DNA of 31,073 nucleotides from an uncultured virus (IMG/VR IMGVR_UViG_3300030100_000622) (lineage: Duplodnaviria > Heunggongvirae > Uroviricota > Caudoviricetes): IMG/VR virus record IMGVR_UViG_3300030100_000622; one strand, 5' to 3'. Under the pieces are notes generated by a model. It did no database searches, was not told the origin of the DNA, and was given only the letters and a program-made list of their open reading frames with translations. This document shows positions 1,362 through 26,671 of this stretch, piece by piece. The translations under genes and the position numbers were made by a program. Numbering within the stretch: the first letter of the stretch is position 1; each line of letters begins with the position of its first letter.

Positions 1362-2714
1362 TCACAGAAGGTTGGTAATTTTACCTTGTCCTTTGAAGTA
1401 TGAACAACCGACTTCAGCAATTGTGCGGTAAAGAGCCTTGTTTCCAAGAGTACCGACACCGAATGGGTTTCCGTTGCTAATACCATCCTCAAAGTATTGG
1501 GTTGGTTTCATAACGCTCATCCATAGATGGTCTGTATCAAGGAATAGCATATCACTAATACAAGCCGAATTAACTCCGGTTGAAGCCATAGCCGCAACAG
1601 GAATCATAGGAATGTCGTAGTATGTTGATACACGGAATCCGACTTCTTGACCTTTAACACCACGAACACCATTTACAGTTGGAACAATTTCCTTTCTATC
1701 CATGAATCTCTCTTGTGCTTGTAGCAAATCAGAGATAGTTTGTAGTGTGTCATATCCTGTTAGAATAACCTTTGGTGAACCACCAGCAACACGAAGTAGT
1801 CTAATCATTTCATTTAGAACAGTTAGTGTCAATTGGCGGGCATCTGCACTTGCATATGAATCACCGAAAGTAACCTGTGCATCAAGATAAGAAGCACTTG
1901 TACGGTTCTTTCCGTATAGATTGTTTGCTTCGTTAGCAGTAGCACTTGTTAGAAGGTTTGCAGTAGCCATAGCCTGTAATTCTTCTGTTGAAGAAACAAC
2001 CTTGTTTAGAGAAGTATAGTTTCTCTCGATTGTATCGACTGTTGCAGAACCCGATACATTTGTATCAGCATTATAGAATTCCAATGGCATTACAAGCATT
2101 AGATTCTGTACTTCAGCGTGATGCTTACCCATATCTTCACGCATTTGCGCTCTAATATCGCCAATTCCATCGTCAATTTGTGCCATTTCCATAGCCAATT
2201 CACTGAATTCAAATTGATGTGCAACAATTTTTGGGCTGGTGAACAATTGCTCGTATTTTGGTGCAATTGAAGCCAATCCATCAGCAACAGTATCTAATCC
2301 AGCATTTTCTGGAACACCACCAATCAAATCTGCTCTTGGAGTTGTTGAACCAAGATTAGCCGCATCTTTTGAACCCTCAACATCAACTGCCAAGAAATTA
2401 CCGCTACCACCAGCAGGTCGCTCACTTAGGACTCTCCATCCACTTGAAGTGTATGGTCGCTTTGCAATTACTGAAAGAGCATTACATTCACGGTTTAGCA
2501 TAGACCAAACTTTTTGTCCATAAACTTGGTTATACAATGCACCAAGAGAAGAAGCCGCAGTAGTACCACTACCGACTCCTAAAGATACATCATGGCCTGT
2601 GTGAATACCTGCCACTGCACCGACTTGCTTCAACAATTGGTTGTTGAATCCGCCTCTTGCGCCTGTTCCGTATGTCTGTGCTTCTAAGTCTGCTATTGTG
2701 TTAATATAACTCAT
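1362..2714 (-). CDS. Major capsid protein (HK97 fold)
   Basis: ~450 aa, start corrected to MSYINTIADLEAQ 1 nt after the protease stop; directly follows the prohead protease; C-terminal pattern typical of archaeal-virus HK97 MCPs (PKVILTG...YYDIPMIP...MLFLDTDHL...QGKITNL). Confidence 0.88.
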   Translation of the reverse strand: MSYINTIADLEAQTYGTGARGGFNNQLLKQVGAVAGIHTGHDVSLGVGSGTTAASSLGALYNQVYGQKVWSMLNRECNALSVIAKRPYTSSGWRVLSERPAGGSGNFLAVDVEGSKDAANLGSTTPRADLIGGVPENAGLDTVADGLASIAPKYEQLFTSPKIVAHQFEFSELAMEMAQIDDGIGDIRAQMREDMGKHHAEVQNLMLVMPLEFYNADTNVSGSATVDTIERNYTSLNKVVSSTEELQAMATANLLTSATANEANNLYGKNRTSASYLDAQVTFGDSYASADARQLTLTVLNEMIRLLRVAGGSPKVILTGYDTLQTISDLLQAQERFMDRKEIVPTVNGVRGVKGQEVGFRVSTYYDIPMIPVAAMASTGVNSACISDMLFLDTDHLWMSVMKPTQYFEDGISNGNPFGVGTLGNKALYRTIAEVGCSYFKGQGKITNLL

Positions 2715-2715
2715 C

Positions 2716-3957
2716 TTAAATTCCCCCAACCATCTTGTGAATGTCATTCCAATCCATATCTGCAATTTCATCCAATGTTGGTAGTGTGACTGAAGATTCT
2801 TCTTGTGCCTTTAGGATTGTTTCCTTTTCAGCAGTCAAAGACTTTCGTAGTTGTGTAAATTCATCCTTTAGGGATGCAATTTCTGAAGCCGCATCATATT
2901 GCGACTTAGCAAGAATAGTTTCTTTTGTGTTCTTTTCGGCCTCAAATCTGGCTTCAAATCTCTTTTGAAGATTATCGTATGCAATCTTTTCTAATTGCTC
3001 TTGGCGGAAAGCCTCATATGCTTTCTCAATATTAGCAACTGACAAATCAAGTGTTTCCAATTCTCTGTTATCAAATGCCTTAACTACCGGCATATCAGAT
3101 GCAGTTGGTTTGCCACCGCTAATTACAATACGGTTTGCTGGCTCGCCAATTTCGACACCTGCGCCATCAAGGGTTGAAAGCACTGCCGCATTCTTGGCAT
3201 CATCAAACTCTTCTTTTTCATAATCAGCATATTCAGCCATTTCTGTATCTGTCAATTCTTTGTCGTCATGACCTGCACCATGACCTGCTTCTTTCATTTC
3301 GGGCATAGCCGCTTCTTTTTCCGGCATGTCCTTGTCTATTTCTTCTTCTTCTTTTCGTAGCATATTAACTTCCTCCATTAGAGTGTCTAATTCTGCCAAT
3401 GCTTTTTCCAATTTACTCATGTTTTTCGCCTCTTTTTCTTGTTTTAGAATATCAAATTTTGCTTCGGGGTTAATTCCTTTTTCACAGATTGTTACTTCAT
3501 GTAATTCCAATTTACTGATTTCGTTATATTCACCTAATTCTGGATGCTTTTTCTTCACCTTATGAATTGCTTGTCCTCCAATACTAAATGACCTCAATGA
3601 ACCTTTTCTAATGCCTCTATTAATTTCTTTGGCTTTTTCTATATCATCTCTTAATTTAATTACTACAAAGAATCCAACATCATCAACTTCTGTTTTCCAT
3701 AGTTTTCCATTCTTATCTCGATATGATTTTACTACTTCTCCTACTTGAACATTTGAATGATTTGTCATTACATTTCTAAATTTTGGGTTCTCCATATAGC
3801 CATTTACTGCTTCTTGTAGTGCTTTGAGGGTAATTAAGTCATTTTGCTTATCAACGATTTCGATGCTTGCATATCCTCCAATCATTAAATCGTCGCTTTT
3901 GAGTATTCTGAAATCATTAGAACGAGTAGCCATTACTGCCGATGCCATTCTTCTCAA
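2716..3957 (-). CDS. Prohead (maturation) protease fused to C-terminal scaffold domain
   Basis: HK97/S78-type protease motifs IGGYAS, VDKQND, H in MTNHSN..VG, S in SFSIGG, LHEVT....GINPEA; then an acidic coiled-coil scaffold; the real start may be ATG at 3948. Confidence 0.9.
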   Translation of the reverse strand: MRRMASAVMATRSNDFRILKSDDLMIGGYASIEIVDKQNDLITLKALQEAVNGYMENPKFRNVMTNHSNVQVGEVVKSYRDKNGKLWKTEVDDVGFFVVIKLRDDIEKAKEINRGIRKGSLRSFSIGGQAIHKVKKKHPELGEYNEISKLELHEVTICEKGINPEAKFDILKQEKEAKNMSKLEKALAELDTLMEEVNMLRKEEEEIDKDMPEKEAAMPEMKEAGHGAGHDDKELTDTEMAEYADYEKEEFDDAKNAAVLSTLDGAGVEIGEPANRIVISGGKPTASDMPVVKAFDNRELETLDLSVANIEKAYEAFRQEQLEKIAYDNLQKRFEARFEAEKNTKETILAKSQYDAASEIASLKDEFTQLRKSLTAEKETILKAQEESSVTLPTLDEIADMDWNDIHKMVGGI

Positions 3958-6751: not shown

Positions 6752-7000
6752 TTATCCCTCAACATTTTCAACCATCTTATGTATTTCCGACCAATCCATT
6801 GTTGAAATATCCTTTGGCATTCCTGTTGGAGTACCAATAGAATTATCCATAGCAGGTGTTGGGCTATCCGTTACAACGAAACCGGCTTTCATAAGAATGC
6901 TATCTTTTGCATAAATTGTTTTTTCCAATGCCTCAACTTTTGAAGTTAAGGCTTTAATTATCTGCAATAATTCTTCATTAATTGTTTTTTCTTCTGTCAT
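6752..7000 (-). CDS. Small scaffold-like coiled-coil protein with C-terminal MDWSEIHKMV motif
   Basis: N-terminal heptad pattern; C-terminus nearly identical to the protease-scaffold C-terminus MDWNDIHKMV. Confidence 0.7.
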   Translation of the reverse strand: MTEEKTINEELLQIIKALTSKVEALEKTIYAKDSILMKAGFVVTDSPTPAMDNSIGTPTGMPKDISTMDWSEIHKMVENVEG

Positions 7001-7004: not shown

Positions 7005-7244
7005 TCATCTCTTTTCTCTTATTTTTTTGCAAGTTTTACAATAATTTATCTTATTTTTTTGGTGTTCTTTATTATATTTACTTAATCCTACTCCGCACAT
7101 GGCACACTTATATTTTGGCTGGTCGGGTTTTCGAGTAGCACCTCTTCTTTTATCACCCATTCTCCAATTTCGTTGGGCTTGTTTGAATCTTTTGTATCTT
7201 TCACCTTTATTATCTTCATCAACTTTAATTAAATCTTTCCACAT
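7005..7244 (-). CDS. W-tagged basic Zn-ribbon protein
   Basis: Starts MWKDLIK; CAMC...CKTC. Confidence 0.75.
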   Translation of the reverse strand: MWKDLIKVDEDNKGERYKRFKQAQRNWRMGDKRRGATRKPDQPKYKCAMCGVGLSKYNKEHQKNKINYCKTCKKIREKR

Positions 7245-7246
7245 AA

Positions 7247-7609
7247 TTAGTCTTCCTTTTTCTTTTTACCATATACCAAATCATACAATTGGCGGTATAG
7301 TAATTCATATTCTTTGCGAAGTTTTGTAGCAGTGGCTACAATATCAATATTGCGCTCATCCATAGATTTCATCTTCTTATTTAGTTTTTTATCTGATTTA
7401 GTTAAATCTAATTCTTTGAGAACATCAATTAATTCACCTAACTTGGTAAAATCCTGTCCAAAAAATTCTGTTGGAGAAGCCGCTTGAATTGTCTTTTTGA
7501 TTCTCTTTTTTTGTTTAGCATCTAAAGAATCAAGAATATCTTTAGGAGAATCTTTTTTTTCTTTTAGAATGAATTCTTCTCCTTCTCCATAATAATCCCA
7601 TGTTGTCAT
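7247..7609 (-). CDS. Hypothetical helical protein
   Basis: 120-aa ORF with tight operon spacing. Confidence 0.75.
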   Translation of the reverse strand: MTTWDYYGEGEEFILKEKKDSPKDILDSLDAKQKKRIKKTIQAASPTEFFGQDFTKLGELIDVLKELDLTKSDKKLNKKMKSMDERNIDIVATATKLRKEYELLYRQLYDLVYGKKKKED

Positions 7610-7611
7610 AA

Positions 7612-9708
7612 TTAATCCCCCTTTCTTTTTGCTCTTTCAGCCTCTCTTTTTTCTCTTTCGGCCCTTGCTCTTGCTTGATACTCTTTGCCGCCTAATTGTT
7701 GCTCATCGGTATAACCTTCTTCAGTCCAAGAAGTTTCTTCTTCACGATAATCATATTCTCTTCTGCCAGCATCGGGTCGAGTAGTATATTCTCCTGTTTC
7801 CTCTAAATCTTTTTTCTTTTGTTCAGGAGTTACCGTAGTATCAACTTCTGCACTTGGTATAGAATCTTCTGTTCTTTTAATAGCATCATTAATTGCAGGA
7901 ATTAAACCTGTAATTTCCCCAACAAGAATATTGGCTTGCTTAATATCAGATTCTTTTAATCCTAAATCTTCTAATTGTTTTGTTGCCATTTCTGGTAAAA
8001 TAGTTAGCATGTCTGTTATTCCTTTCATATCAACTCCTACCATTGTATCTCTTGAAGGCTGTTTTGCTTTACCTTGTTTGAGCCATTCTTTCCATTCTTT
8101 TTTGGCTTCTTCTCCCATATCTTCTATTTCTCTAAATAGTTTTTTAATTGAGCCAACAAGATTACTTAGCATTCTGCTTGATTCTGTCAAAGACGATGAT
8201 AAACTCTTAGATGGTAATTTTACTTCATCCGTTTTATCAATAAGAGCATCCATTTTTTCAACTATGCTGCTTAAATATCTCAAAAACTTAACATTAAATT
8301 TAGATAATAGCCCATCTATTTTTTTATTGTTTTCTTCTATTCTATCTGATACTTTACCTATTTCTTCTTTTATTTCTTTAGGCAAATTGTTTCTCATTTC
8401 TTGTATTCTGTCAAGTAACTCTGTAAAATATTCTGGAATATTTTCAATTTCTCCGAGTTCATCAATATCTAAAGGAGTTTCTTTTGCTCTTGGGTCAGCA
8501 GATGGTCTTTCTGTTCCTTCAGATATTGTTTTTCCTTGTTTATCTTTGCGAGTAGTTACTTTTCTTTTAGGAACAATTATCTTTTTACCCTCTTCTGTTT
8601 CTCTCACAACAAGATTAGATAGTTTAATTTTAATCTCTTTTACTTCATTAGCAATTCTATCTTCTATTTCTTGGCGAATAGTTTCTTCTGGCAATTCTTT
8701 CAAATTTTTATTATATTGTTTAATTTCTTCTAAATTATTTTCTAAAGATTCTAAGTAATTATTGGCACTTTTAATTGTTTGACGAAGATTTTTTCTCGCT
8801 CTCTTGTATGTTTCAACATGGCCTTTGGTATCTCTATCTTTGAGCCTTTGTCGTAAATTAGACAAATCTCTTCTTACGGCTGGAATATTTTGTAAAGCCT
8901 TTGGTTCAGCATTAAACTTCTCTAAATGAATTTCACCAAGCGTAGTCAATAAATCAACATCATGGTTATCTAATTTAGCCTTAGATAATTCTAATAGAGT
9001 ATTATTCATATCGTGAATGTTTATTTCTCTTTTGCTTTTTTTCTTTGTATATTGATTCTTTTTCTTTTTATACATTTTACCAGAATAAATAGGAAAATCT
9101 CCGCCTTCAGTAAATTCACTTGCTCTTTTAATCAGATAATTACCTTCTTTCTTTAGAGCAACCAAAGTAGTTATGAGTCTCTCAGATTTAGTTTTAGTCA
9201 CATTTTTATATGGACTTTGGCCAGAAATTACTTTTTGGTCGGAAACAGGTTGAGTTATTTGAATAGTCCTAATCATTTCTCTTAATTTAGGAATTAATTC
9301 TTCATAGGTCAAGATTTCTCTTTGAAGTGAATTCTGCCTATTTGCTTCTCCGGTTTTTTGCCTTGCTTCTGCTGAAATTGCTTCTGCTGAACCTTCATCC
9401 ATTAACCTTCGTTGCTCGACTTCTGAAATATCCCCTCTCCCTCTTTTTGCATCGGCTCGCCTTTGAGTACCATAGCCGGTTCGATAGCGAACATCTCCCT
9501 CTAATTCACCATAATCTTCTTCTTTTTTAGCAATAGAGATATACTTTCTATATTGAAACATATTAGAAGGATTAATGTTTTTAATCAAAGACTTCTTGAT
9601 TTCTCCGGCACTTGCCTTAGCAGTAACTAACTCTCTTGTTTCATCATCCAATTCAACTTTACTTAGAACATAAAGTAAAGATTTATCTTTAGACAATTCA
9701 AAAAACAT
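7612..9708 (-). CDS. Large charged coiled-coil hypothetical protein
   Basis: 698-aa ORF, GAGGTGA RBS, K/E-rich heptads; no family recognised. Confidence 0.8.
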   Translation of the reverse strand: MFFELSKDKSLLYVLSKVELDDETRELVTAKASAGEIKKSLIKNINPSNMFQYRKYISIAKKEEDYGELEGDVRYRTGYGTQRRADAKRGRGDISEVEQRRLMDEGSAEAISAEARQKTGEANRQNSLQREILTYEELIPKLREMIRTIQITQPVSDQKVISGQSPYKNVTKTKSERLITTLVALKKEGNYLIKRASEFTEGGDFPIYSGKMYKKKKNQYTKKKSKREINIHDMNNTLLELSKAKLDNHDVDLLTTLGEIHLEKFNAEPKALQNIPAVRRDLSNLRQRLKDRDTKGHVETYKRARKNLRQTIKSANNYLESLENNLEEIKQYNKNLKELPEETIRQEIEDRIANEVKEIKIKLSNLVVRETEEGKKIIVPKRKVTTRKDKQGKTISEGTERPSADPRAKETPLDIDELGEIENIPEYFTELLDRIQEMRNNLPKEIKEEIGKVSDRIEENNKKIDGLLSKFNVKFLRYLSSIVEKMDALIDKTDEVKLPSKSLSSSLTESSRMLSNLVGSIKKLFREIEDMGEEAKKEWKEWLKQGKAKQPSRDTMVGVDMKGITDMLTILPEMATKQLEDLGLKESDIKQANILVGEITGLIPAINDAIKRTEDSIPSAEVDTTVTPEQKKKDLEETGEYTTRPDAGRREYDYREEETSWTEEGYTDEQQLGGKEYQARARAEREKREAERAKRKGD

Positions 9709-9717
9709 TTAGTCACC

Positions 9718-9942
9718 TCAGAATGGAATATTTTCTTTTTTGTTTCTGTGCTTTGGTGGCAGTGTAACTACATCGGGAACATCTGCTGAAACAGGTTTAG
9801 CCTTATGTGTAGTATCTTGCGGTACTCCAACGCTGAAGTCCTTTGTCTTTCTTAATTTGGTATCAGCGTTAGCGTTTATTGCTTTCACTTGTGCCAATTC
9901 TTTTTTCAATCTTATTTCTTTTTGTCTTAAATCTTCTGTCAT
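9718..9942 (-). CDS. Hypothetical protein
   Basis: 74 aa; TAATG overlap with the upstream gene. Confidence 0.7.
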   Translation of the reverse strand: MTEDLRQKEIRLKKELAQVKAINANADTKLRKTKDFSVGVPQDTTHKAKPVSADVPDVVTLPPKHRNKKENIPF

Positions 9943-10307
9943 TATTCCACCAACCTATTTGGGTCTATGCTATCAAAGCCATGTTCATCATCAAAGTAGT
10001 CGCTATATCCCTTATATCCACCAAGAGTACCTTTGTAAATAGCAATTATGCTTTTGCTACTTGGTATATCAACAATATAATCATCAATTTTGATTCCCAT
10101 TTCTTTTAATTTATCGAATGCTCTTACTTGCAGATTTCCATGATTGTCTGATAAATCCACTTTTAATTGATATTCTGGCGGATTGTATCTGTAAAACTGA
10201 GAATATCCTGATGTATGACCTTGCTTTATCTCAGAAATTCTTTTTTCAATAAACTCTTCTAAACTTATTGCTTGTTTCTCTTCTTTTAGTATATCTTGCC
10301 AAGTCAT
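9942..10307 (-). CDS. W-tagged hypothetical protein (121 aa)
   Basis: Start corrected to MTWQDILKE at 10307, 1 nt after the portal stop. Confidence 0.75.
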   Translation of the reverse strand: MTWQDILKEEKQAISLEEFIEKRISEIKQGHTSGYSQFYRYNPPEYQLKVDLSDNHGNLQVRAFDKLKEMGIKIDDYIVDIPSSKSIIAIYKGTLGGYKGYSDYFDDEHGFDSIDPNRLVE

Positions 10308-10308
10308 A

Positions 10309-11943
10309 TCAACCAACTCTTCTTTCTGTTCTTCTATCCACATTCTGATTTCCAGCATCCTTTGGTAATCCCGCTAATCTTTTATCCGGCCCTTCGCTCA
10401 TTGATGGTTTATTTCTTGTTGCCGGTGGATTTTCTTGAGGCTTGCTTTGCATCATTTGTTCTTGCATTTGGCCCATCTGTGAAGCATCTATGTTAGTTCC
10501 AGCGTATTGGTCTAATTCAACCTTTCCCTCTTCATCGGGTGATTCGCCGCCTTCGGGTTCTTTTGGTTCTGGCTTCTTAAATGTAAATTGTCCATCCTCA
10601 TCCATATCAACTTCAAATCCTAAGTTTTTGGTAGCGGCGGCAATATTGACTTCAATCTCTCTTTTACGAAGAACAGCAATTTCATCTTCTTCTTCGCTTG
10701 GTGGGAGTTTTAATTTCCAATCTGTAATTCCAAATTGCTTTACAAGGAATGGGAATACATATTCATTATACACATTTTGAGCCATTTGTACTGCTCGATT
10801 AGTTACAAGAATCTGCATACCTTCGTTATTCAAACCTCCACTTGTAGTGTTATCGGCCATGAATACTTTACTAACACCATAGAATGCTGATATTCTATCT
10901 CTCAAATCATCCTTGACTGAAACATAATCCATTTCCTTGAGGCTATCCATGAATTTAATCCATTCGACTGCACCCTTTCCATTTTCTGCCTCAATACCCA
11001 TTACAGGAATAAAGTGAGGGTCTTGTTCCATCTTTTCTTTGACTGCTCTCCAAAAAGATTTCATTGAATCCATATTTCTTGTTTGTACTGCCAGCAAACC
11101 TTTAGGCATTCGGCTCTTAGTATATGAAGAATTAACATAGTTTTCCATAGCAATTAAAGTCATTATGTTATTGTAAAGAGTAATAACAGGTGACATACCA
11201 TACAGTCGAGAAGGACTATATTTACTGAAATGCAATACTTCTCCTTTCAAGAAGTATTGGTCTTCTCCATTTACTCTATTGACATAATGAACGGGGAATA
11301 GATTAGCACCGCAAGTTTCACATCTTTCATGCGGTTCTGTTGCAAGCATGTTTCTATGATTAACACAAGTGAATCCCGTAGTACCTCTTTCTCCTAACTC
11401 ATCAGTGTAAATATACATAGTAACAGGGTCGCCTCTATACACTTCTTTGATTCTGTGCATTCTAATTTTACCGTTACCATCTATGAAGTATTCTTTTACT
11501 AAGACAATGTACGCATCATCCATGATATTCAAATCATCTTCTAATTCTCTAAGAACATCAATAAATAATTGCTCTGATTTATTGACATATCCTTCAATAA
11601 ACTTTTCAGCATATTCTAACTGTTTTACATCAGGAGTTTTCAAATCTGTGCTACCACATCGAGAACATTCTGCTACGGGTCTTTGATGTATTTTACCACA
11701 ATTGTTGCACTTTGCTTCGTATGCTTTTTCCCAGAGATAACCTCTTCTAAATATCTCCTGTTTCAATTGAGTAATACAAGTTCTCGCAATAACTGATTGA
11801 TTAATCAGATGATAGATTAGAGGGGCAGTCATCATATTTTGATTCTGCCTTTCTTGAATACCCATATTGAAGATTTTTCTATCAGCAGGTTTAGGAGTTT
11901 GCCTTCTAAATAAATTGGTTACGGAAAATCTTTTTTTAGCCAT
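10309..11943 (-). CDS. Portal protein with two Zn-ribbon insertions
   Basis: 544 aa; portal-like segments DAYIVLVK, EVLHF....RLYGMSPV, PKGLL, ISAFYGVS; GGAGGT RBS; lies between terminase and protease. Confidence 0.88.
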   Translation of the reverse strand: MAKKRFSVTNLFRRQTPKPADRKIFNMGIQERQNQNMMTAPLIYHLINQSVIARTCITQLKQEIFRRGYLWEKAYEAKCNNCGKIHQRPVAECSRCGSTDLKTPDVKQLEYAEKFIEGYVNKSEQLFIDVLRELEDDLNIMDDAYIVLVKEYFIDGNGKIRMHRIKEVYRGDPVTMYIYTDELGERGTTGFTCVNHRNMLATEPHERCETCGANLFPVHYVNRVNGEDQYFLKGEVLHFSKYSPSRLYGMSPVITLYNNIMTLIAMENYVNSSYTKSRMPKGLLAVQTRNMDSMKSFWRAVKEKMEQDPHFIPVMGIEAENGKGAVEWIKFMDSLKEMDYVSVKDDLRDRISAFYGVSKVFMADNTTSGGLNNEGMQILVTNRAVQMAQNVYNEYVFPFLVKQFGITDWKLKLPPSEEEDEIAVLRKREIEVNIAAATKNLGFEVDMDEDGQFTFKKPEPKEPEGGESPDEEGKVELDQYAGTNIDASQMGQMQEQMMQSKPQENPPATRNKPSMSEGPDKRLAGLPKDAGNQNVDRRTERRVG

Positions 11944-11947
11944 ATTA

Positions 11948-12097
11948 TTAAACCTCCTGTGATTTTTCTAAATCCTTTTCAGTTATCAATCCTTTCATAG
12001 ACTTAGGCCTACCATGCGCTACCCAACACTTTTCACAAAAGCCATGTGGTCGCAAGTCGGGTGTAGTATAACATAGCCCGCAGTATTGGAACTTCAT
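11948..12097 (-). CDS. Small Zn-finger protein (49 aa; below the ORF-track cutoff)
   Basis: MKFQYCGLCYTTPDLRPHGFCEKCWVAHG...; ATGA overlap with the upstream gene; fills the gap to the portal exactly. Confidence 0.65.
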   Translation of the reverse strand: MKFQYCGLCYTTPDLRPHGFCEKCWVAHGRPKSMKGLITEKDLEKSQEV

Positions 12098-12348
12098 AAA
12101 TCTTCACCTACTTTTCTAAATGTTTTTCTAATGTCACGCACAACTAAATTATATCTTCCCGATTTAGCAGGGGTAGCAGACACAAAGACCAGCCTTGTAG
12201 TGTCTGTTTTATTACTACGCACTGTTAATTTAACATGCTTGCTACCCATTTCTGCACCGATAATTTTAACGGGTAATCGAGATTCAACAAACTTTTGAAT
12301 TTGCCTAACTTCTTTTTTTGACGATTTTAGTATGTATTCCCATGCCAT
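12094..12348 (-). CDS. W-tagged HicA-like (dsRBD-fold) protein
   Basis: Start corrected to MAWEYILKS; GSKHVKL...VFVSATP...VRDIRK resembles HicA-type mRNA interferases. Confidence 0.55.
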   Translation of the reverse strand: MAWEYILKSSKKEVRQIQKFVESRLPVKIIGAEMGSKHVKLTVRSNKTDTTRLVFVSATPAKSGRYNLVVRDIRKTFRKVGEDL

Positions 12349-12352
12349 TGTA

Positions 12353-13987
12353 TCACAACACATCATAGTCGCTTGTAGGATTCAACCAATCCCTCTTCTC
12401 TCCTTCGGCAGTAATCTCATACCAAATGTAACCACTAATCCATCCTATATTATCACCCATCCAATCTAACAACTTATCTTCAATAGATTCTTGGTCTTCA
12501 TCTTCATCAATATTTAATTCTTTAGCAGTAAGGAAAACATTCAATTCAATATCTTCCATAGGGTCATCTTCTGTTGAATAAGACTCAATCACAAAGGTTC
12601 TCTCTTGTTGCTTAACTATTGTGCCACCAATATTTTCTAACTCATCCATAACCGACATTTTACAATTACCTTGTAATTTTGAAATATCATCTAAGTTAAT
12701 ATTTTCCTTTGAGAAATCAAACCCAACATGGTCTTTATGGTTCTCCCATTTCATCAATTTGAAAATTTCATCACATCTTTGCTTATACCAATCTGCCTTC
12801 TTGTATGATTTTTTCATACGAATTAACTCTAACAATAATTCAGCATTACCCTTCTTCATTCGGAAATGTGGCAAACACTTGGTTAATAATTTAGAAACAT
12901 CATCCTGTGAATAGAAATTCAAACGATTTACCGGCCTTGTGTCCTGTGGAGATTTTTGGTCTAAATGTAATCGACCAAAACCAATGGACTTGTGCATTTC
13001 ATACATGAAAGTCTTACCTCTCTCCCCTGTTGCGACTAATCCGACTCTTGGATTCATGTTACGGTCAAGAGTAATATATCCATCAGAATCAATAAATGCC
13101 GCAGTATAAGCCCACACATTCTTCTTTAACATACTCGGCATCTTGTAATAACTACCATTGTAACAAGCAATATCTAACTTGTTTATGCTTTTAGATATGG
13201 AATTACTGTTAGTAATTTTGAACAAATCTGAAGGCATTCTTTCATGTATTCCTTTAGCATTTATGCCCGGATTTTCACACACCATTTTTAGAATGAAGTC
13301 ATTCTGTCTGTCTTTTTTAGATTTAGTTAAAGACTGATTAGAAATTTTAGAAATAACATTTCTGAATTCTTTTTTGCTGGCTCTCATGGTTTTGAATAAG
13401 TCACTATATTCTTTTCCATAGACCATCCCATTCTGTTCTAATTCAGCCTCCCAATATTTACACAAGGCATCAACTACTTCTCTTCGAGTTTCAACATCAG
13501 TCATTTTGTTTAACTTTTGTAAATCTTTTTCACTAAATCTCATTTTATTTAGAGGCACTCGATATGGATTAAGCCAAGTAATAGAATCTATACACTTTTG
13601 TAAATGGTCTGAATAAGCATCAATCATAGTATCAATAGCCTTTGCCATTTTTATTCTCTGTTCTCCCTTTAATTCTCTTCGAGCCTTTCTCATTTTTTTA
13701 ATTAGGTCGGGAACTGTTTGGTCTTGAACAATGTATTCATTAGGAAAATTAACTAATTGTTTTCTTGCCTCGGTAGCATTAATTCCATGGGTTTCTGATA
13801 ATTTAGAAATCTCTTCATGTTGTGACATAACATAGGTATCAAATGAAGTAGCAACCTCACTTTCTTCGGTTGGTGCGGTTAATTCTTCTTGCATTTCTTG
13901 AAAAGTTTCTTTCTCTTCTTCTTTTATTCTGTCAAGATTGTCTGCAAACTCTCTTAATTTATCCGGTAATTCTTTTCTTAATGTCAT
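12353..13987 (-). CDS. Multidomain protein with LAGLIDADG endonuclease-like domain
   Basis: AYTAAFIDSDGYI motif, then IGFGRL and LLTKCLPHFRMKKGNAELLL typical of LAGLIDADG domains; preceded by a helical region and a wHTH-like segment (ENPGINAKGIH). Confidence 0.75.
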   Translation of the reverse strand: MTLRKELPDKLREFADNLDRIKEEEKETFQEMQEELTAPTEESEVATSFDTYVMSQHEEISKLSETHGINATEARKQLVNFPNEYIVQDQTVPDLIKKMRKARRELKGEQRIKMAKAIDTMIDAYSDHLQKCIDSITWLNPYRVPLNKMRFSEKDLQKLNKMTDVETRREVVDALCKYWEAELEQNGMVYGKEYSDLFKTMRASKKEFRNVISKISNQSLTKSKKDRQNDFILKMVCENPGINAKGIHERMPSDLFKITNSNSISKSINKLDIACYNGSYYKMPSMLKKNVWAYTAAFIDSDGYITLDRNMNPRVGLVATGERGKTFMYEMHKSIGFGRLHLDQKSPQDTRPVNRLNFYSQDDVSKLLTKCLPHFRMKKGNAELLLELIRMKKSYKKADWYKQRCDEIFKLMKWENHKDHVGFDFSKENINLDDISKLQGNCKMSVMDELENIGGTIVKQQERTFVIESYSTEDDPMEDIELNVFLTAKELNIDEDEDQESIEDKLLDWMGDNIGWISGYIWYEITAEGEKRDWLNPTSDYDVL

Positions 13988-13996
13988 ATAATCACC

Positions 13997-15418
13997 TCAA
14001 AAGTTTAGCCCCAATGTATTGCCAGAACGGTTAGAAATCTTATCATCAAACAAACCTAAATCATCGAGTAGTATGAAGTTATCTGTGGCTTGGTATGTTG
14101 CGGCATTAGCCAATGCAAGGCTCATTACCATGTCATCATGTGCGCCAATTCCTTCAAACTTGCCCTTGTCGGTAATAGCAAACATAGACAATTCTTCAAT
14201 CAATGTTGAAGTTACTCTTCTGCTTTCTTCATTACCATAAGGAAAATTCATCTTTGAGTTTTCAAGAGTCATTTGAAGATTCAAAATAATTTCCTGTTTC
14301 TTTCTTCGAGTCGTGTTAAAGTCATGCACATTCAAATCTGCTACCTGCCTCAACTCTTGAGTAAAAGACTTAGCAAAAGTATTGGTTTCAAAAAGAATAG
14401 CCTCCGGTCTAAACATTTGACCTATGAGTTTGACCTTCTGAATATTCTCTCTAAACTCGACATTCTTTGCTCGGTCAATATATACAATGGATTTGTTTTC
14501 ATTCTCATCCATTTCTAAAACAGTAATCACATTATAGTCGCCATCGGTTGAAATAGCAGGGTCAACCCCAACGAAATATTTGTAGCCTTCACGCTTCATT
14601 GGCTTCAATACCAAATCCTTATTCTTAGCATTATCAAGATATTCTGGATTGAATAGAGAAGTACCTGTTGAAATTGGTACACACATATATTCTCTTGTGA
14701 ACATGAGAGAACCAACTTCAGCCTTACGAGCCATCAGTGCATCGTAATTCCAACGGGCTGGCCATAGCGGTTCATTTAAGGAATTCAAGCAAGGATATGT
14801 ACGAACAGTATATGCGGCATTTTCTGACAACTGAGCATAAATATCTGTATAACTGAAAGGAGTACCTATTACTCTTAGAGAAGCCGTATGGTGAAGCGTT
14901 GGTATCATGTCACCATAAAACCAATCAGTTACCTTTTGAATACCTGTCATACTAAACTCTTTCAAAGGGTCGTCAATAATAATTTCTTGAGGGTGCAATC
15001 CACGAATCTGAGAACCAACTGACCTCTCAAGAATCTGATTCCCATTGGTTAGAGTAATGTTTCCAATAGCCCAACCCCTTGCAGGTTTGTATTTTTTTAA
15101 CATGGGGTGCTGAAACATTTTATCAATATCTCTCATGTGAACCAATGTCTGTTTTTGGTTAGATGAAATGTATAGCATTTGATATGGGGGTTCTTCAAAA
15201 ATTAATTTCCAAACAACCCAACTGTGCATAAATACTGATTTACCATGGTCACGACTACAAATAATAACTGTTCTTTGTGTACTATTCATTAAGTCATGCC
15301 ATTCACTAATATAAGAAGGAAAATCAAACCCTAATACATTTTGAAAAAAATATGGAAAAGAGTTTTTAGATAACTCCATATCCATTTGATGTTCAAAATT
15401 TAAGGCTTCTAATTCCAT
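13997..15418 (-). CDS. terL: Terminase large subunit
   Basis: Walker A SRDHGKS, Walker B IIIDD, coupling motif IGTP, RNase H-like nuclease GVDPA...HDDMVMSLALA. Confidence 0.95.
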   Translation of the reverse strand: MELEALNFEHQMDMELSKNSFPYFFQNVLGFDFPSYISEWHDLMNSTQRTVIICSRDHGKSVFMHSWVVWKLIFEEPPYQMLYISSNQKQTLVHMRDIDKMFQHPMLKKYKPARGWAIGNITLTNGNQILERSVGSQIRGLHPQEIIIDDPLKEFSMTGIQKVTDWFYGDMIPTLHHTASLRVIGTPFSYTDIYAQLSENAAYTVRTYPCLNSLNEPLWPARWNYDALMARKAEVGSLMFTREYMCVPISTGTSLFNPEYLDNAKNKDLVLKPMKREGYKYFVGVDPAISTDGDYNVITVLEMDENENKSIVYIDRAKNVEFRENIQKVKLIGQMFRPEAILFETNTFAKSFTQELRQVADLNVHDFNTTRRKKQEIILNLQMTLENSKMNFPYGNEESRRVTSTLIEELSMFAITDKGKFEGIGAHDDMVMSLALANAATYQATDNFILLDDLGLFDDKISNRSGNTLGLNF

Positions 15419-15420
15419 CC

Positions 15421-15831
15421 TTATTCCTCTTTATCTTCTCTTTTCATTTGGTTCTTTTTGGATTTCTCATCCTTTGTGATTGGGCCACCTTTAGCCCATG
15501 TATAACAAGTCCTATCTTCATGGCATTTGAAATCGTGCATCCAACAATATCCTAAGCCGCCTTTTACATCTTCAATAGGCATACAGTCTTTCATTCGTGG
15601 ACTAATATCAAAAGCAATACAATTTGAGCATTTAGATTTTTTAGCGGCCTCAACTGATGTGTCCCAATGTTCCGCTACTTTGTCCCAATAATCAGCCGGT
15701 TCATCTATATTCAAAGGCCCGTATTTAATATCCTCATCTTTGATAGCCGCATTTCTATTCTTAGTGTTCAGTTTAAGATTCTGTGTTGCCGCAGGGCAAG
15801 CCAATTGTTTTAAGATAATTTCCCAACTCAT
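15421..15831 (-). CDS. W-tagged Cys-rich metal-binding protein
   Basis: MSWEIILKQ; CSNC...GYCWMHDFKC....TC..W. Confidence 0.75.
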   Translation of the reverse strand: MSWEIILKQLACPAATQNLKLNTKNRNAAIKDEDIKYGPLNIDEPADYWDKVAEHWDTSVEAAKKSKCSNCIAFDISPRMKDCMPIEDVKGGLGYCWMHDFKCHEDRTCYTWAKGGPITKDEKSKKNQMKREDKEE

Positions 15832-16184
15832 CTTGTGAACCCCCTCCCTCGACTTGGTTTATGTGTGTAAATATCTCCGTCTTTGTGAATAAATATCTTT
15901 CCTTCTTTTACCATGCGGTCAAGAGTTTCTTTTAGATTAGGAATACCCTTTAGGTTTTTCATACCTAATGCACCGCCTTCTTTCTGAATTTCACGAAGAA
16001 TCATTTTTTCAGGATTTTCTTTGTTTAAGAGTTTGAAATCGTTTCCGGTAATTTTACCATCTTTATCTGCATCAATTCTTTTCTGATTACCAATAAGTTT
16101 CTTCTCGAATTCTTCTTTTTCAGAATCTAACTTGCTGGTATTACAGTGCGCTTTTTCTGTTTTTAGTATGTCTTTCCATGTCAT
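15828..16184 (-). CDS. W-tagged protein with EF-hand-like loop and C-terminal wHTH-like segment
   Basis: MTWKDILKT; DADKDGKITGND fits the DxDxDGxI Ca-binding loop. Confidence 0.7.
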   Translation of the reverse strand: MTWKDILKTEKAHCNTSKLDSEKEEFEKKLIGNQKRIDADKDGKITGNDFKLLNKENPEKMILREIQKEGGALGMKNLKGIPNLKETLDRMVKEGKIFIHKDGDIYTHKPSRGRGFTR

Positions 16185-16600
16185 TTTCCTTTTCTCCTTT
16201 TGTATGTTTTACATGCCGCACAGGTAGGGCGGCATCTTTGTTTTGTTCCTTTAGAAGCATCTTTTCTCCCGCAAGGTTTTGTTCCTTTTTTATCATCTTC
16301 ACAAGATTGACAGGAAACCCAACCCTTTTGTCCATCTCCACCTCTTCTTGAAAACCAACCGTGTAATCCCGATTCTTTTTCTCTTTTGAAATTATCTCCA
16401 CCTTTTTTTACAGAGTTACCCCAATTCTTTGCACCGACTTTACGACATTGTACTAATGCCCCACTTGCGTATGCTGAAGGCCACTTTTTGTAGCGACTAC
16501 GGACTTTGTAATAACAAGCATCTTGTTTTTTACCCGACCTCTGGGTTCTCCTTCTTCGGAGTTTTTTCTTTTTTGCTTTCAAAATATCTTGCCAAGTCAT
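16181..16600 (-). CDS. W-tagged highly basic two-module protein
   Basis: MTWQDILKA; modules DACYYKVRSRYKKWPSAYASGALVQCRK and GLHGWF...KPCGR...CRP. Confidence 0.75.
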   Translation of the reverse strand: MTWQDILKAKKKKLRRRRTQRSGKKQDACYYKVRSRYKKWPSAYASGALVQCRKVGAKNWGNSVKKGGDNFKREKESGLHGWFSRRGGDGQKGWVSCQSCEDDKKGTKPCGRKDASKGTKQRCRPTCAACKTYKRRKGK

Positions 16601-16602
16601 CT

Positions 16603-16875
16603 TCATCCCTCTTGACCTTCATATTCAGTAACTAATTTTTTAATGGTTGAAGATATTTTTCTTATATCTGCCGCAAGTTTTTGATATTGCTTGGCCCTTC
16701 TTTTGTCTATATATGGAAACTGCCCCTCTAATTCGGGTACAAACCTATTAACTGCTCCATGAAATCCGGTTTTAGAAAAATTTGTTCTTAGTAATTTAGC
16801 AACATCTTTTCTCGGATATTGAATTGGATTTGCCAAGTCTATTCTCTCGGCTTTTATTATATCTCGCCAACTCAT
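16603..16875 (-). CDS. W-tagged hypothetical protein
   Basis: MSWRDIIKA, 90 aa. Confidence 0.75.
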   Translation of the reverse strand: MSWRDIIKAERIDLANPIQYPRKDVAKLLRTNFSKTGFHGAVNRFVPELEGQFPYIDKRRAKQYQKLAADIRKISSTIKKLVTEYEGQEG

Positions 16876-16879
16876 AATA

Positions 16880-19591
16880 TCACGCTCTAAAGTTAGCCTT
16901 AATCAAATACACTTGCTCGGTGCTAATACCATATTCTTTCGATAAGTTAGAATGTGAATCATCCGACTTAACGATATTCTCCACTTCTAAGTGACTTAAA
17001 TCAACTCTCTCTTCATGGTACATTTTATCAAGGAAAGAATCGAAATTCTTTTCTAAATTAAGGAAACCATAAACAACTTTTTTGCCTAACTGCTTTCTAA
17101 TAATGTCGTGAGCCTTGAGCAACTTCTTGACTTGGAAAGGAATATCTTGTTGTTTCTGCGCAAAGAAGTTCATTATTTTATCATAGTGTATTTTCTTTTT
17201 ATCGTTTTCTGATAAGACACCTTGATTGACTTCTAAATAATTAACTAACGCAACAAGGTATCTTCTTTTTCCTATCGAATTCATGTAGCCTTTTACTCTA
17301 TCCTGTATTGTTTTATTGCTTCTTCTTGGGAATCTTTTTCCTATTCTGGTTAAATCCTCAACTTCATTCATAAGAACAAATATAATCATACCTAATTCAT
17401 TTGCAATATCTTCTTCGGCTTCTTTTCCAAATATTTCCACCAAGGCTCTCAATGCTCTTGTTCCAATACTAAATAACTCATTACTAATCCCTATCTGTTT
17501 TTCATCTCGATAAGATAAGAATTCTGAAATATCTTCTAATGCACCAGCAGTAATTTCTTTTGCTGACCCTCTCGCCATTTTCTCCCAACTCGAACCAAAT
17601 ACATTCTCCAAGCCTATTTCTCTCGCCCAAGCATCTATTCCACGGCTACCAACTCCATTCATAAATGCAGGTGCGCTAACAACCAATAGACCTGTTTGTA
17701 AAGGACTGATGAAATAATCCATAGAGGCTTCTAAAAACTCTTGTAAAGATTTTGTTAATTTCTTATACTCTTCTTTAATATCCGCAAATCCTCTATCGCT
17801 TGCTCGGCTGCCTTGTCCTCTAATTAATCCTAATTTATTTGTTCTAACTGCTTCAACCCAATCAATAGGGGCCGCACCTTTTGGTTGTCCTTTTGTACTT
17901 CTATTAGAAACATGGAATGCAAACGATTCTTGGACTTCATCTGCTTCATATTTATCTCCAACCTTTGCGCCTTCGGGAATATCATCACCTTCAGCGTATT
18001 CTCTCTCAACCTTTTTAGTCTTGAGTCTAAGAACCTCATACAAGTCATTAAAGAATTCTTTAATGGTTTTATCCACCTCATCATCTAATTTTTCATCAGT
18101 GATTGCGCCCTTAACATCTCGCTTATACATCTCCATAAACTCTTTATTATCTAAAACAGAAATAGGCAAAGCAAACATATTATTTTTCAAATCTTCTTTT
18201 TCTAATCTCAAGGTATCATCAATTTCATCAGCCCACTGAATTACCTTATGTTTAGTTGTAGGCTGGATAATTAATTCTGTTGTTTTATCAGCCGCTTCAT
18301 CTAAAAAGTCATAGATGTAATCTCTAAGTATATTATGTTGTCTTGTTGTTAAAGCAACTAATTTATTATTTCTTTTTAATTCCCATGCCAATAGAGGGTC
18401 AAGGTATTCAGTTAATTTTATATCTATCTCTTTCTCTTTAGACTCTAAAGAATCCTTAACTGCATCTTCAACCATTTCACCTGCTTCTGCTTGAGCAATA
18501 GCACCCAAGGCTCTTTCTGAACCAGCCATTATTTGTTGTTCCCCAACTTCACTGCCAGAAACTTCATCTCTTTCCTGTTCCTGTATTTGTCGCAATTCTT
18601 CTGCTGACATATCAGAATCTCTTTCACCAAGCCCTCTCTCTTCTTGGTTTTCTTTTTCTTCTTGCATGATATTATTTGTTGCCATCCAAGCATCAATTAG
18701 ATTAATAAATCTTTCAATAGGGTCGTCATGCCTTGAATTATAAGGTTCAAATTTACCAATGTATTCTAAGTTTTTATTTCTGTATCTTTTGAAAAACTTC
18801 TCAAAATCTAAAACTAATTCATTTGGAACTTCGTTCTCTTTTTTCACTAACTCCTGAGCAAAAGCATCAAACTTCTCCTTGAAAATAGTATATTTTTTTG
18901 CCGTTTCCGACCAATGTTCATAAACAATCTTTCGGTAAGAACCTTTAGAAGCATCAACCGCACCATAAATAAAATCAAAATCAAGAGGCGGTATATCAAC
19001 GCCTTCTCTTTCTTTAGTATATTTTCGTCTATATCTGCCTACTCTTTCCTTTGTCCTTTCTTCGGATGAACCAAAAGCATCTTTTTCTTCTTTAACATAC
19101 TCATACAGTAAAGGAATATTATGTGCTAATGCTTCAAAACTTTCTGGCAATTCCTCCATTGATTGAATGTAATCTTTTGCTTTTTCAAGTTCATTAAGGT
19201 TAATCATTTGTATATTTTTGACATTAAACAAAAACCTACCCTCTTTACCTGTTTTTAATTTTACAGTAGTGGCTAATTGTGCAGGAGAAATTGTGCTGCC
19301 TCTAAGATTTTCAACTTTTATGTTTCTAAATACTGTGGCTAATTGACTCATTTCCGCAGAAGCACCAGACTTTGATTTTCCTGCTTCTTCCATGGCTTGC
19401 CTTAATTCTCTTTGGAATTTATTTCTCAAATCACTTTGATTACCTAAATTCTCACCTCGAATAAATTGTGTAAATTTATCCACTTCTTTTTTGAATGCAA
19501 GATTTCTTTTTCTTCCTGTTGGTATTTTAAGAATGTCCTTAATAGTATTTTCAGAAATATCATAATCAACTTCTTGTACTAATCTTACCAT
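16880..19591 (-). CDS. Large hypothetical protein with C-terminal HTH-like motif
   Basis: 903 aa; SHSNLSKEYGISTEQVYLIK at the C-terminus resembles an HTH; GGAGGT RBS. Confidence 0.8.
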   Translation of the reverse strand: MVRLVQEVDYDISENTIKDILKIPTGRKRNLAFKKEVDKFTQFIRGENLGNQSDLRNKFQRELRQAMEEAGKSKSGASAEMSQLATVFRNIKVENLRGSTISPAQLATTVKLKTGKEGRFLFNVKNIQMINLNELEKAKDYIQSMEELPESFEALAHNIPLLYEYVKEEKDAFGSSEERTKERVGRYRRKYTKEREGVDIPPLDFDFIYGAVDASKGSYRKIVYEHWSETAKKYTIFKEKFDAFAQELVKKENEVPNELVLDFEKFFKRYRNKNLEYIGKFEPYNSRHDDPIERFINLIDAWMATNNIMQEEKENQEERGLGERDSDMSAEELRQIQEQERDEVSGSEVGEQQIMAGSERALGAIAQAEAGEMVEDAVKDSLESKEKEIDIKLTEYLDPLLAWELKRNNKLVALTTRQHNILRDYIYDFLDEAADKTTELIIQPTTKHKVIQWADEIDDTLRLEKEDLKNNMFALPISVLDNKEFMEMYKRDVKGAITDEKLDDEVDKTIKEFFNDLYEVLRLKTKKVEREYAEGDDIPEGAKVGDKYEADEVQESFAFHVSNRSTKGQPKGAAPIDWVEAVRTNKLGLIRGQGSRASDRGFADIKEEYKKLTKSLQEFLEASMDYFISPLQTGLLVVSAPAFMNGVGSRGIDAWAREIGLENVFGSSWEKMARGSAKEITAGALEDISEFLSYRDEKQIGISNELFSIGTRALRALVEIFGKEAEEDIANELGMIIFVLMNEVEDLTRIGKRFPRRSNKTIQDRVKGYMNSIGKRRYLVALVNYLEVNQGVLSENDKKKIHYDKIMNFFAQKQQDIPFQVKKLLKAHDIIRKQLGKKVVYGFLNLEKNFDSFLDKMYHEERVDLSHLEVENIVKSDDSHSNLSKEYGISTEQVYLIKANFRA

Positions 19592-19593
19592 AA

Positions 19594-22014: not shown

Positions 22015-22955
22015 TGCAAATCCTCCACAAAATCATCAATATGTTCTGCAAAAATTTCCGCTACATTGGCCCATTCAACATCACTAATAGCGTCTATTTC
22101 ACCATATCCTTCTAACTCATCCATAAAACCACTATGATGAACCATCATATTAGGCAACCATGCGCTTAACTTAGACATTATTTTGGCTTTATCGTGCCCA
22201 GATTGGACTAAACTTTTAATGTAGCCAAGTGCCATTTGATTTAAGTCATAATCATTAGCAATCCATAATTCTGCTGAACGGGTTGCGGTTTCCATTCCCT
22301 TCATTAATTTAGTAACTGTATCTTTTAGTCTATATTCTGTACCATAACTTGATGAACTCATCTTAATATATTCAGGATTCGATTTAAGATACATGGCTAC
22401 TGCTTTTTTAGTAGGAATACCTCTTGTTGATTGCTTTTTATTATTCTGATAAGTGTATAAACTTTCAATAATGCCTCTTGAAGTTCTATTATATCCATCC
22501 GACATAATTTCATCAATAATTGGCCCCCATCTATTCATGGGCTTACTGCCGCCTTTCAGCATTTTTTTCTTATACGGATTAGTTAGATTTCTTGCGGGGT
22601 CAGAACCCGTAGTACCAAAATTAGACAGAGGCGGCGGATTTCTTTGTTCTTGTATTAATCTCATAGCACTATTAACTTGTGATGATGCCGGCGTTTCTTT
22701 TTCTGGGAGGCCATGAGCAGATGAACCTACTTGCTTTAGAGCGAGCCTAATACCTTCAATGGTTCTGTTTGCTTTAGGCATTCTATAAATTGCTTGAGTG
22801 AATGCTTTTTTTGCATATGAATTTCCGCCCCAATGAATAGAGTTTTGTAATTCTCTCTGATAAAATTCTTTGGCTTCTTGATTAGGAAACCTAAGACCCA
22901 TTACATCTAAGAGTCCTTTCTCAACATCATTTTTTAGGACATCTTTCCAATCCAT
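22011..22955 (-). CDS. W-tagged multi-module protein
   Basis: MDWKDVLKN; 314 aa; apparently three modules. Confidence 0.8.
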   Translation of the reverse strand: MDWKDVLKNDVEKGLLDVMGLRFPNQEAKEFYQRELQNSIHWGGNSYAKKAFTQAIYRMPKANRTIEGIRLALKQVGSSAHGLPEKETPASSQVNSAMRLIQEQRNPPPLSNFGTTGSDPARNLTNPYKKKMLKGGSKPMNRWGPIIDEIMSDGYNRTSRGIIESLYTYQNNKKQSTRGIPTKKAVAMYLKSNPEYIKMSSSSYGTEYRLKDTVTKLMKGMETATRSAELWIANDYDLNQMALGYIKSLVQSGHDKAKIMSKLSAWLPNMMVHHSGFMDELEGYGEIDAISDVEWANVAEIFAEHIDDFVEDLQ

Positions 22956-22959
22956 ATTA

Positions 22960-23450: not shown

Positions 23451-23451
23451 A

Positions 23452-24032: not shown

Positions 24033-24033
24033 T

Positions 24034-24878: not shown

Positions 24879-24882
24879 AAAA

Positions 24883-26666: not shown

Positions 26667-26671
26667 TCTAA

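Follow-up and report, generated by a model that had tools for sequence, protein, structure and literature searches.

Why should the last residues of a scaffold protein resemble the first residues of many otherwise unrelated proteins of the same virus? The question is raised by a stretch of 31,073 nucleotides (hereafter, the window) from an uncultured tailed virus, IMG/VR record IMGVR_UViG_3300030100_000622. One gene of the window encodes a prohead protease joined to a scaffold protein (the protease-scaffold), and a first-pass annotation had pointed out that this protein ends in M-x-W-x-D-I-x-K, the spacing found in short peptides (the tags) at the N-termini of other gene products. Its proposal was that the tags, as mimics of the coat-binding peptide of the scaffold, occupy one and the same pocket as that peptide, on the inward-facing side of the major capsid protein (MCP). 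Here we report that the C-terminal element (the tail) is conserved, that a second, separately encoded protein ends in it as well, and that the tags resemble it in part.

The protease-scaffold ends in a conserved tail

The tail, the protein that bears it and the neighboring capsid gene are located as follows:

1362..2714, minus strand: MCP, HK97 fold (PF17236; phrog_24667, E 6e-21), the gene next to that of the protease-scaffold
2716..3957, minus strand: protease-scaffold, 413 amino acids: S78 domain (residues 25-176) and, following it, acidic linker, helical scaffold region and tail at the C-terminus
2719..2781, minus strand: conserved C-terminal tail LPTLDEIADMDWNDIHKMVGGI, with its core MDWNDIHKMV at 2728-2757

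Translation of the minus strand from 2716 to 3957 yields a protein of 413 amino acids with the final residues LDEIADMDWNDIHKMVGGI. The interval 2716-2757 comprises exactly the last 13 codons and the stop codon, encoding the C-terminus MDWNDIHKMVGGI, and the translation confirmed that tail and tags have the same spacing. Residues 25-176 belong to PF04586, making this a prohead protease of the HK97 family (35.9 bits, where the cut-off is 21; E 1e-08). The protein also matches phrog_23555 (E 6e-15) and has a long, helical, acidic region after the protease domain; its score against TIGR01543, 36.6 bits, was under the cut-off of 59.

Conservation of the scaffold C-terminus, which the proposal of the annotation presupposes, was borne out. 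We compared 234 loci, sorted by the identity of their capsid protein to that of the window into lineages A (65-90%, 80 loci), C (51-65%, 80 loci) and B (40-42%, 74 loci). A tail of the form [ML]-[DENS]-W-x-x-I-H-K-M ends 119 of 120 close homologues, the one exception being a truncated sequence, and a scaffold sub-lineage at 62-66% identity ends in MSWADLNRLAGN. The tail varies by lineage (MSWADLNRLA, MSWDEVHQLA, MSWGDIHNLA), and W3, an acidic residue at position 5 and [IVL]6 were present in all of 215 scaffold tails from the three lineages. Farther afield, a tail of the W/Y-x-[DEQN]-[ILVM] type was found in the last 26 residues of 24 of 150 representatives of a 50%-identity library, many of them fragments or proteins of other architectures, as compared with 51 of 2611 internal windows. 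Mean column identity was 0.63 in the tail core, 0.42 in the linker and 0.57 in the helical region. The scaffold, whose gene adjoins that of the capsid protein, ends in a conserved element at its extreme C-terminus. The last ~20 residues are compatible with an amphipathic helix that gives way to a short Gly-rich terminus; for the tail, a hydrophobic moment of 0.44 was obtained, and 3.3% of shuffled sequences came out as high.

A methionine codon within the same gene also drew our attention. Met180 (3418-3420), which is conserved in lineages A, B and C, lies 8 residues past the sequence F-D-I-L-K and behind a GAGG (upstream region 3421-3445), and database open reading frames (ORFs) of 209-227 amino acids (P0133, P0139, P0146 and P0192) begin exactly at this residue. 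Together, these features suggest that a nested or separately made scaffold product may exist.

A small protein carries a second copy of the tail

The first-pass annotation had missed a second bearer of the tail:

6752..7000, minus strand: 'mini-scaffold' candidate, 82 amino acids, 3 kb upstream of the scaffold, with the tail MDWSEIHKMV at 6770-6799

The final residues of this protein are STMDWSEIHKMVENVEG, and its tail, MDWSEIHKMVENVEG, is of the same type as that of the scaffold. The protein is helical and coiled-coil-like in appearance, and the members of its family consist of an N-terminal helix, an invariant L-M-K-[AS]-G, a Pro-rich linker and the tail. Homologues were found in 102 loci, the family being present in lineages A, B and C, and M68, W70 and I73 were near-invariant in an alignment of 70 sequences.

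The two tails vary together. When scaffold and 82-residue protein from the same genome were compared at tail positions 7-10 (57 unique pairs from 108 loci), 2.16 residues were identical as against 1.48 in shuffled pairings, and none of 5000 shuffles reached the observed value. Thus, IHKMV is paired with IHKMV, VHQLA with IHEMA, [IV]-N-E-L-[AV] with [IV]-D-E-L-V, IHSIV with I[NS][DQN]II, and LNRLA with MAKII, a pair in which His7 is lost from both tails. We regard this co-variation as only suggestive because common ancestry inflates the figure.

A tail common to two scaffold-type proteins has a precedent. According to the accessible part of PMC5644958, the SP protein of phage 80alpha and the CpmB protein of the satellite SaPI1 have a common C-terminal helix-and-hook with an RIIK motif, and in 80alpha an amphipathic helix of 11 residues and a hook of five make up this tail, which binds the helix of the capsid N-arm and the A/P cleft. 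The window virus is like this pair, as the source describes it, in having a full scaffold and a small helical, dimer-type protein that are separately encoded and end in the same short tail; the tail of the window is likewise compatible with an amphipathic helix and a short Gly-rich terminus, and its two copies co-vary. The differences are that the motifs (RIIK as opposed to M-D-W-x-D-I-H-K-M-V) have no likeness in sequence, that a single virus encodes both tail-bearers, where the other pair is divided between a phage and its satellite, and that the scaffold of the window is fused to a protease. Moreover, binding of the 80alpha tail has been solved, whereas for the window tail it is proposed from sequence.

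Protease and scaffold have one common C-terminus in herpesviruses (UL26/UL26.5) and in phage lambda (C/Nu3), and Duda et al. reportedly described, in 2013, a capsid-targeting region at the C-terminus of the HK97 protease. The window virus resembles these systems in that its maturation protease would be brought into the prohead by a C-terminal element held in common with the scaffold function, and Met180 behind its GAGG hints at a nested scaffold product as in lambda C/Nu3. Unlike in UL26/UL26.5 and C/Nu3, the second tail-bearer of the window is a separate gene of 82 codons and not only a nested product.

Might the tail instead dock its bearers on the portal or on the protease domain, for example to nucleate assembly at the portal vertex or to hold the protease inactive? 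Contacts between scaffold and portal are known in other tailed viruses, and the window encodes a third protein with a W-x-D-I-like C-terminus (ORF 24213-24878), so that the head module may use such helices for docking in general. Yet scaffold-type proteins would be expected in tens to hundreds of copies, as against 12 portal subunits, and the solved precedent for a tail common to two scaffold proteins is one of binding to the capsid. We consider this explanation improbable.

The third protein, the 221-residue product of ORF 24213-24878 (minus strand), is a core protein found in six of six whole genomes; it has a weak helix-turn-helix match and is possibly the small terminase. Its C-terminal helix is of a looser W-x-D-I type, reading P-[DE]-[IV]-W-L-D-[IV]-[KR]-K-x-M in lineages A and C and P-D-T-W-K-R-I-K-A-E-L in lineage B.

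Tags mark the N-termini of variable late proteins

The tags are distributed through the window as follows:

7224..29038, minus strand: block with 21 ORF starts bearing the tag M-[STDNA]-W-x-x-[IV]-[LIV]-K, the first 8 codons of each
29038, 28727, 28368, 27962, 27594, 27211, 26666, 24216, 24032, 23763 and 23450, minus strand: ends of tags 1-11
23247, 22955, 22008, 16875, 16600, 16184, 15831, 12348, 10307 and 7244 (a 7-residue variant), minus strand: ends of tags 12-21
22932..22955, minus strand: tag MDWKDVLK of the 314-residue ORF 22011-22955, with a score of 21.5 against the position-specific scoring matrix (PSSM) described below

About 21 late ORFs thus open with a tag of the type M-[ST]-W-x-[DN]-[IV]-[LI]-K, the number 21 having been counted with looser variants of the pattern; among them is ORF 22011-22955, which begins with MDWKDVLK just as the annotation had claimed. 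A six-frame scan of the window for W-x-[DEQN]-[ILVM]-x-K gave 17 matches, of which 13 were at ORF starts and two at C-termini (those of the scaffold and the 82-residue protein); of the other two, one lies 13 residues before the end of ORF 24213-24878 and one is spurious. The stricter pattern M-x-W-x-x-[ILVMT]-x-K, applied to frames of at least 40 amino acids in the window and 80 related loci, occurred 168 times: 56 times at an ORF start, 112 times no more than 25 residues from a stop codon and never internally. Finally, 39 N-terminal tags, taken from three genomes other than that of the window, were made into a PSSM, with which we scored the 9165 octamers of 38 window proteins. The tags of the window took ranks 1-18, 20 and 23, the tail of the 82-residue protein rank 21 and that of the scaffold rank 22.

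The sole internal octamer to outscore the tails was MAWQNAIR, residues 339-346 of ORF 24883-26334 (minus strand), which could be an internal start, the mark of a two-gene fusion or a chance occurrence.

Do the recurring letters reflect a signal in the nucleotide sequence, such as a start context, a recombination linker or a regulator site, or else chance? Every tag stands at a start codon behind a Shine-Dalgarno sequence (GGAGG-like, at -12 to -8), and both tails lie just upstream of the start of the next gene. The codons, however, vary at every conserved residue, both synonymously and by switching between codon families: Ser is encoded by AGT or TCT, Leu by six codons and Ile by three. The tags are therefore conserved at the level of protein. 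Moreover, the two differ in their place relative to a start codon, a tag being downstream of its own and a tail upstream of that of another gene, and neither the lack of any internal occurrence among the 168 nor the ranks of the tails in the PSSM search is what chance would give. An explanation by nucleotide signal or coincidence is thus highly improbable.

The tag-bearing proteins form a hypervariable set. In 250 loci, most are represented by 0-7 relatives, one had only 4 homologues in a large protein search, and a genome whose scaffold is 97% identical to that of the window lacks many of the tagged ORFs. In searches of Pfam and PADLOC, none of the tagged proteins had a match above threshold. 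An unbiased search for N-termini held in common picked out 9-18 ORFs per tag-bearing genome, almost all of them with W tags. We conclude that otherwise unrelated proteins of a virus equipped with prohead protease and scaffold have a short N-terminal peptide in common.

Such an arrangement brings to mind the internal proteins of phage T4, which carry at the N-terminus a capsid targeting sequence (CTS) of about 10 amino acids (PMC9958956, in the part accessible), and the DarB protein of phage P1, which has an N-terminal packaging signal within 30 amino acids (PMC9024508, likewise in part). As far as these sources go, the likeness is that of a short N-terminal peptide on unrelated proteins, the T4 and P1 peptides directing dispensable proteins into the prohead. 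The differences from the CTS are a protease of the S78 family, an unrelated motif and a presumably archaeal host; further, 12-20 ORFs are tagged per genome rather than the handful of T4 and P1, and the tag half-resembles the scaffold tail. The prohead protease of T4 reportedly removes the CTS, as Mullaney and Black are said to have described in 1996; for the window, packaging and clipping are proposed from the sequence. The mechanism that the annotation had proposed for the tags is in fact that of the cargo-loading peptides of encapsulins, in which, according to the portions available of PMC10960027 and PMC10402063, loading needs no more than a short terminal peptide of the cargo, which binds an HK97-fold shell on its inner face. 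Membership of the window system among encapsulins was ruled out by the presence of a portal (PF04860, phrog_18178), a large terminase (phrog_38) and an S78 protease. Encapsulins, as described in those portions, are without portal, terminase, protease or scaffold, whereas the window holds the head module of a true virus.

Several features of individual ORFs deserve mention. In the 118-residue product of tagged ORF 15828-16184 (minus strand), a loop, DADKDGKITGNDF, resembles an EF-hand and the C-terminal part a winged helix, every match falling below Pfam thresholds. The products of tagged ORFs 22960-23247 and 16181-16606 (minus strand) are very basic and Cys-rich, with a near-threshold match to DUF5754 and a weak match to DUF5872, and could be DNA-condensing internal proteins. 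A second N-terminus, M-T-W-D-[YW]-Y-[NGD], which is distinct from the I-L-K tag and is represented in the window by MTTWDYYGEGEE (ORF 7247-7609, minus strand), marks a small paralogous family beside the head genes, both in the window and in loci L062, L063, L067, L075 and L076.

Tags and tails match over half of the motif

Over the 234 loci, tags and tails have in common M1, [SD]2, W3, [DE]5 and [IV]6, and beyond these positions they diverge. Among 181 tags, position 7 is [LIV] in 170 and His in two, and position 8 is Lys in 176. Among the 215 scaffold tails, in contrast, position 7 is His in 192 and never Leu, Ile or Val, Lys8 is present in 61, position 9 is hydrophobic in all, and position 10 is Ala or Val in 210. 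The match at Lys8 that the annotation had included in its motif is special to the lineage of the window. The tags are, then, a class separate from the tails, matching them over only half of the motif. The only tags that are tail-like at position 7 are the two with His7, MSWRELHR and MSWRELHK (L037 and L055).

Tags and tails also differ in their history. The tags remain M-S-W-x-D-I-L-K in genomes with tails of the IHKMV, IHNLA, IHNIV or LNRLA class, and they were found in 30 of 80 loci of lineage A and 45 of 80 of lineage C but in none of 74 of lineage B. Whole genomes gave the same picture: four are tag-bearing (G002, G003, G004 and G009), whereas in the two of lineage B (G005 and G007; loci L254-L264) we found no tags, nor, in the unbiased search, a shared N-terminus of any kind. 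Lineage B (L100-L173; G005 and G007) has nevertheless kept both tails, so the cargo-tag system is restricted by lineage. The tail is, by these distributions, the older and more widespread of the two.

How do these results bear on the proposal that the tags are true mimics of the coat-binding peptide of the scaffold, competing with the tail for one pocket on the inner face of the capsid? The proposal is partly supported. The likeness held for M1, [SD]2, W3, [DE]5 and [IV]6, which occur with identical spacing and at chain ends in both cases; the scaffold tail ranked 22nd of 9165 octamers against a matrix made from tags, tags with His7 do exist, and copying from tail to tag is possible, as the tail is the older and more widespread. 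It failed for positions 7-10, where tags have [LIV]7-K8 and tails have His7, a variable position 8 and hydrophobic residues at 9 and 10 that the tags lack. Nor did the tag consensus co-vary with the scaffold C-terminus across relatives, a comparison that the annotation had suggested: the tags are the same whatever the tail class of the genome, and lineage B has both tails but no tags. Full mimicry accordingly seems to us unlikely, although it is the strongest of the alternatives.

A further possibility is that the tags load cargo by way of the scaffold core (the helical region or the 82-residue protein) and not the shell, in which case their likeness to the tail would be a remnant or a coincidence. 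In keeping with this, the T4 targeting sequence brings reporters to a core structure (according to the accessible part of PMC9958956), tags and tails evolve independently, and head genes and cargo genes are intermingled along a single strand. On the other hand, the scaffold and the 82-residue protein are present in tag-less lineage B too, and no candidate receptor tracks the tags. A phyletic search for genes present in the four tag-bearing genomes and absent from the two tag-less ones returned only small ORFs close to the head genes and part of a 903-residue protein, a result confounded by the divergence of lineage B, which may be why that lineage lacks g283, g985, g7247, g9718 and part of g16880. 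We hold loading through the core to be doubtful.

One supposed difference of the tag-bearing lineages was rejected. A tblastn match to lineage B starting at residue 52 had raised the idea that the capsid protein of tag-bearing lineages has an extra N-terminal extension of ~50 residues; this was dropped because the lineage-B capsid proteins open with a homologous N-arm (MARNYVRTITDMERYYYG...LLK).

The end of the tag resembles candidate cleavage sites

If not from the tail, whence the second half of the tag? Tripeptides of the type [IL]-L-K occur at fixed places in the head proteins:

3898..3912, minus strand: F-R-I-L-K (residues 16-20), before the protease domain, candidate maturation cleavage site
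3442..3456, minus strand: F-D-I-L-K (residues 168-172), after the protease domain, candidate cleavage site
2628-2636, minus strand: L27-L28-K29 of the MCP N-arm (in an alignment of 60 sequences, K29 invariant and L27 and L28 at least 90%)

The two sites in the protease-scaffold bracket its protease domain. In 167 sequences from lineages A, B and C, [ILVMF][LMI]K was present at residues 18-20 in 100%, and the motif at residues 170-172 was present in 96%. Residues 27-29 of the MCP read [ILV]-[LMI]-K in 100% of 150 sequences, and in the 82-residue protein the motif was conserved at residues 14-16 and 36-38 in at least 94% of 72 sequences, these being from lineages A and C only. Conservation in the MCP and the protease-scaffold extends to tag-less lineage B, which has kept its [IL]-L-K motifs along with its tails. 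The portal contains no [ILV][LMI]K tripeptide, and none of four sites in the ligase is conserved.

In F-D-I-L-K at 3442..3456, the letters D-I-L-K correspond to tag positions 5-8, and this is the best non-terminal match to the tag matrix in the protease-scaffold (PSSM score 5.5). Maturation cleavage, we infer, probably takes place at [IL]-[LM]-K, and the tags would terminate in such a site. The D-I-L-K half of the tag would then be better explained by the conserved, protease-site-like [IL]-L-K than by the tail.

A model for the tail and the tags

The account that we favor, for which and against which we see the evidence as about evenly balanced, is that protease-scaffold and mini-scaffold dock by one and the same handle, the tail, and that the tags are a younger, T4-like signal for loading and clipping that reuses half of the tail. 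Both proteins would attach by their tails to the inside of the capsid shell as it assembles, and the receptor, by analogy with 80alpha SP and CpmB, may be the N-arm region of the capsid protein. The tags would be a more recent, lineage-restricted invention, carried by ~21 unrelated and fast-changing late proteins. The tag may be read as having two parts, a docking-like half (M-[SD]-W-x-[DE]-[IV]) and a protease-site half ([LI]-K), since the first half is shared with the tail and the end matches the [IL]-[LM]-K of the protease borders, the capsid N-arm and the mini-scaffold. By analogy with the T4 CTS, the tag would cause its bearer to be loaded into the prohead and then be clipped. A more explicit version, in which the first half of the docking tail (M-S-W-x-D-I) is fused to a cut site (I-L-K) and any protein bearing the eight residues docks in the pocket of the tail on the capsid protein, is freed inside the head once the protease acts and enters the archaeal host along with the DNA, is speculative, and we doubt that it is correct as a whole.

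Several observations weigh against the favored account. HVTV-1, a cultured relative, has neither the tail nor the LLK in its capsid N-arm, and nothing can be transferred from it because both are missing. Shared ancestry confounds the co-variation of the two tails, for which gene conversion could be an alternative cause; the hydrophobic moment of the 82-residue tail, reached by 17% of shuffles, is not significant. When tail positions 7-10 were set against capsid columns in 146 unique pairs, the mutual information mostly reflected phylogeny and revealed no clear hotspot, the bin of the capsid N-arm being only slightly raised (0.41 as against 0.31-0.39). As to clipping, [IL]-L-K is a common tripeptide in this proteome rich in Lys, Ile and Leu, and its absence from the portal is near the level of chance (roughly one site expected). 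Finally, the residues past Lys8 of the tag are variable, and a defined P1' preference is therefore not evident.

The head module and the origin of the window

All long ORFs between 283 and 29047 are on the minus strand. In addition to the genes described above, the head module includes:

3988-6501, minus strand: ATP-dependent DNA ligase (PF01068)
10309-11943, minus strand: portal (PF04860, phrog_18178)
12353-13987, minus strand: 544-residue core protein, between terminase and portal
13997-15418, minus strand: large terminase (phrog_38, E 1e-54)

In the order of transcription, small ORFs and two large ones (806 and 903 amino acids) are followed by the terminase, the 544-residue protein and the portal, and then by several small ORFs, the ligase, the protease-scaffold and the MCP. 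The 544-residue protein, which has a homing-endonuclease-like stretch (phrog_5046, HNH, residues 293-410), was present in six of six whole genomes. The MCP is without the delta domain of the HK97 type, and a sequence search of the PDB for relatives of it returned none. Searches of NCBIfam with eight of the larger head-module proteins, including the tagged 806-residue ORF, gave no match above cut-offs.

The only cultured relatives that we found are the haloarchaeal siphoviruses HVTV-1, HCTV-1 and HCTV-5, with ~30% identity over the protease domain, and related IMG/VR contigs are 85-107 kb in length. From these contig sizes and the halovirus-like head genes, the window is inferred to be part of a head-tailed archaeal virus of ~90-100 kb of the magrovirus type; contig sizes and cultured relatives agree with the published description of magroviruses, as given in the accessible part of PMC5434244.

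Discussion

Equating the tag with the scaffold tail is good for only half of the motif and is not by itself a mechanism. A scaffold tail held in common and a capsid-targeting sequence are each of a known kind; the form that they take here is a new variant. We found no description of the motif strings, of the scaffold tail or of the N-terminal motif in the literature, papers on magroviruses included, their supplements not being covered.

Viruses of the magrovirus type have hosts among the most abundant archaea of the surface ocean; none has been cultured, and the assembly of their heads is almost unexplored. A tail common to the protease-scaffold and the mini-scaffold offers a concrete point from which to test how the capsids of archaeal tailed viruses assemble, and the tag, at eight residues, could serve as a trial packaging signal in a heterologous assembly system. 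If the tags are an address for loading and clipping, then the cargo that is injected, which is likely to include factors for host takeover or anti-defense, could be listed directly from sequence. Were this so, a very abundant group of ocean viruses would have a fast-evolving library of injected proteins that can be read from sequence, with ~15-20 members per genome and differing even between near-identical genomes.

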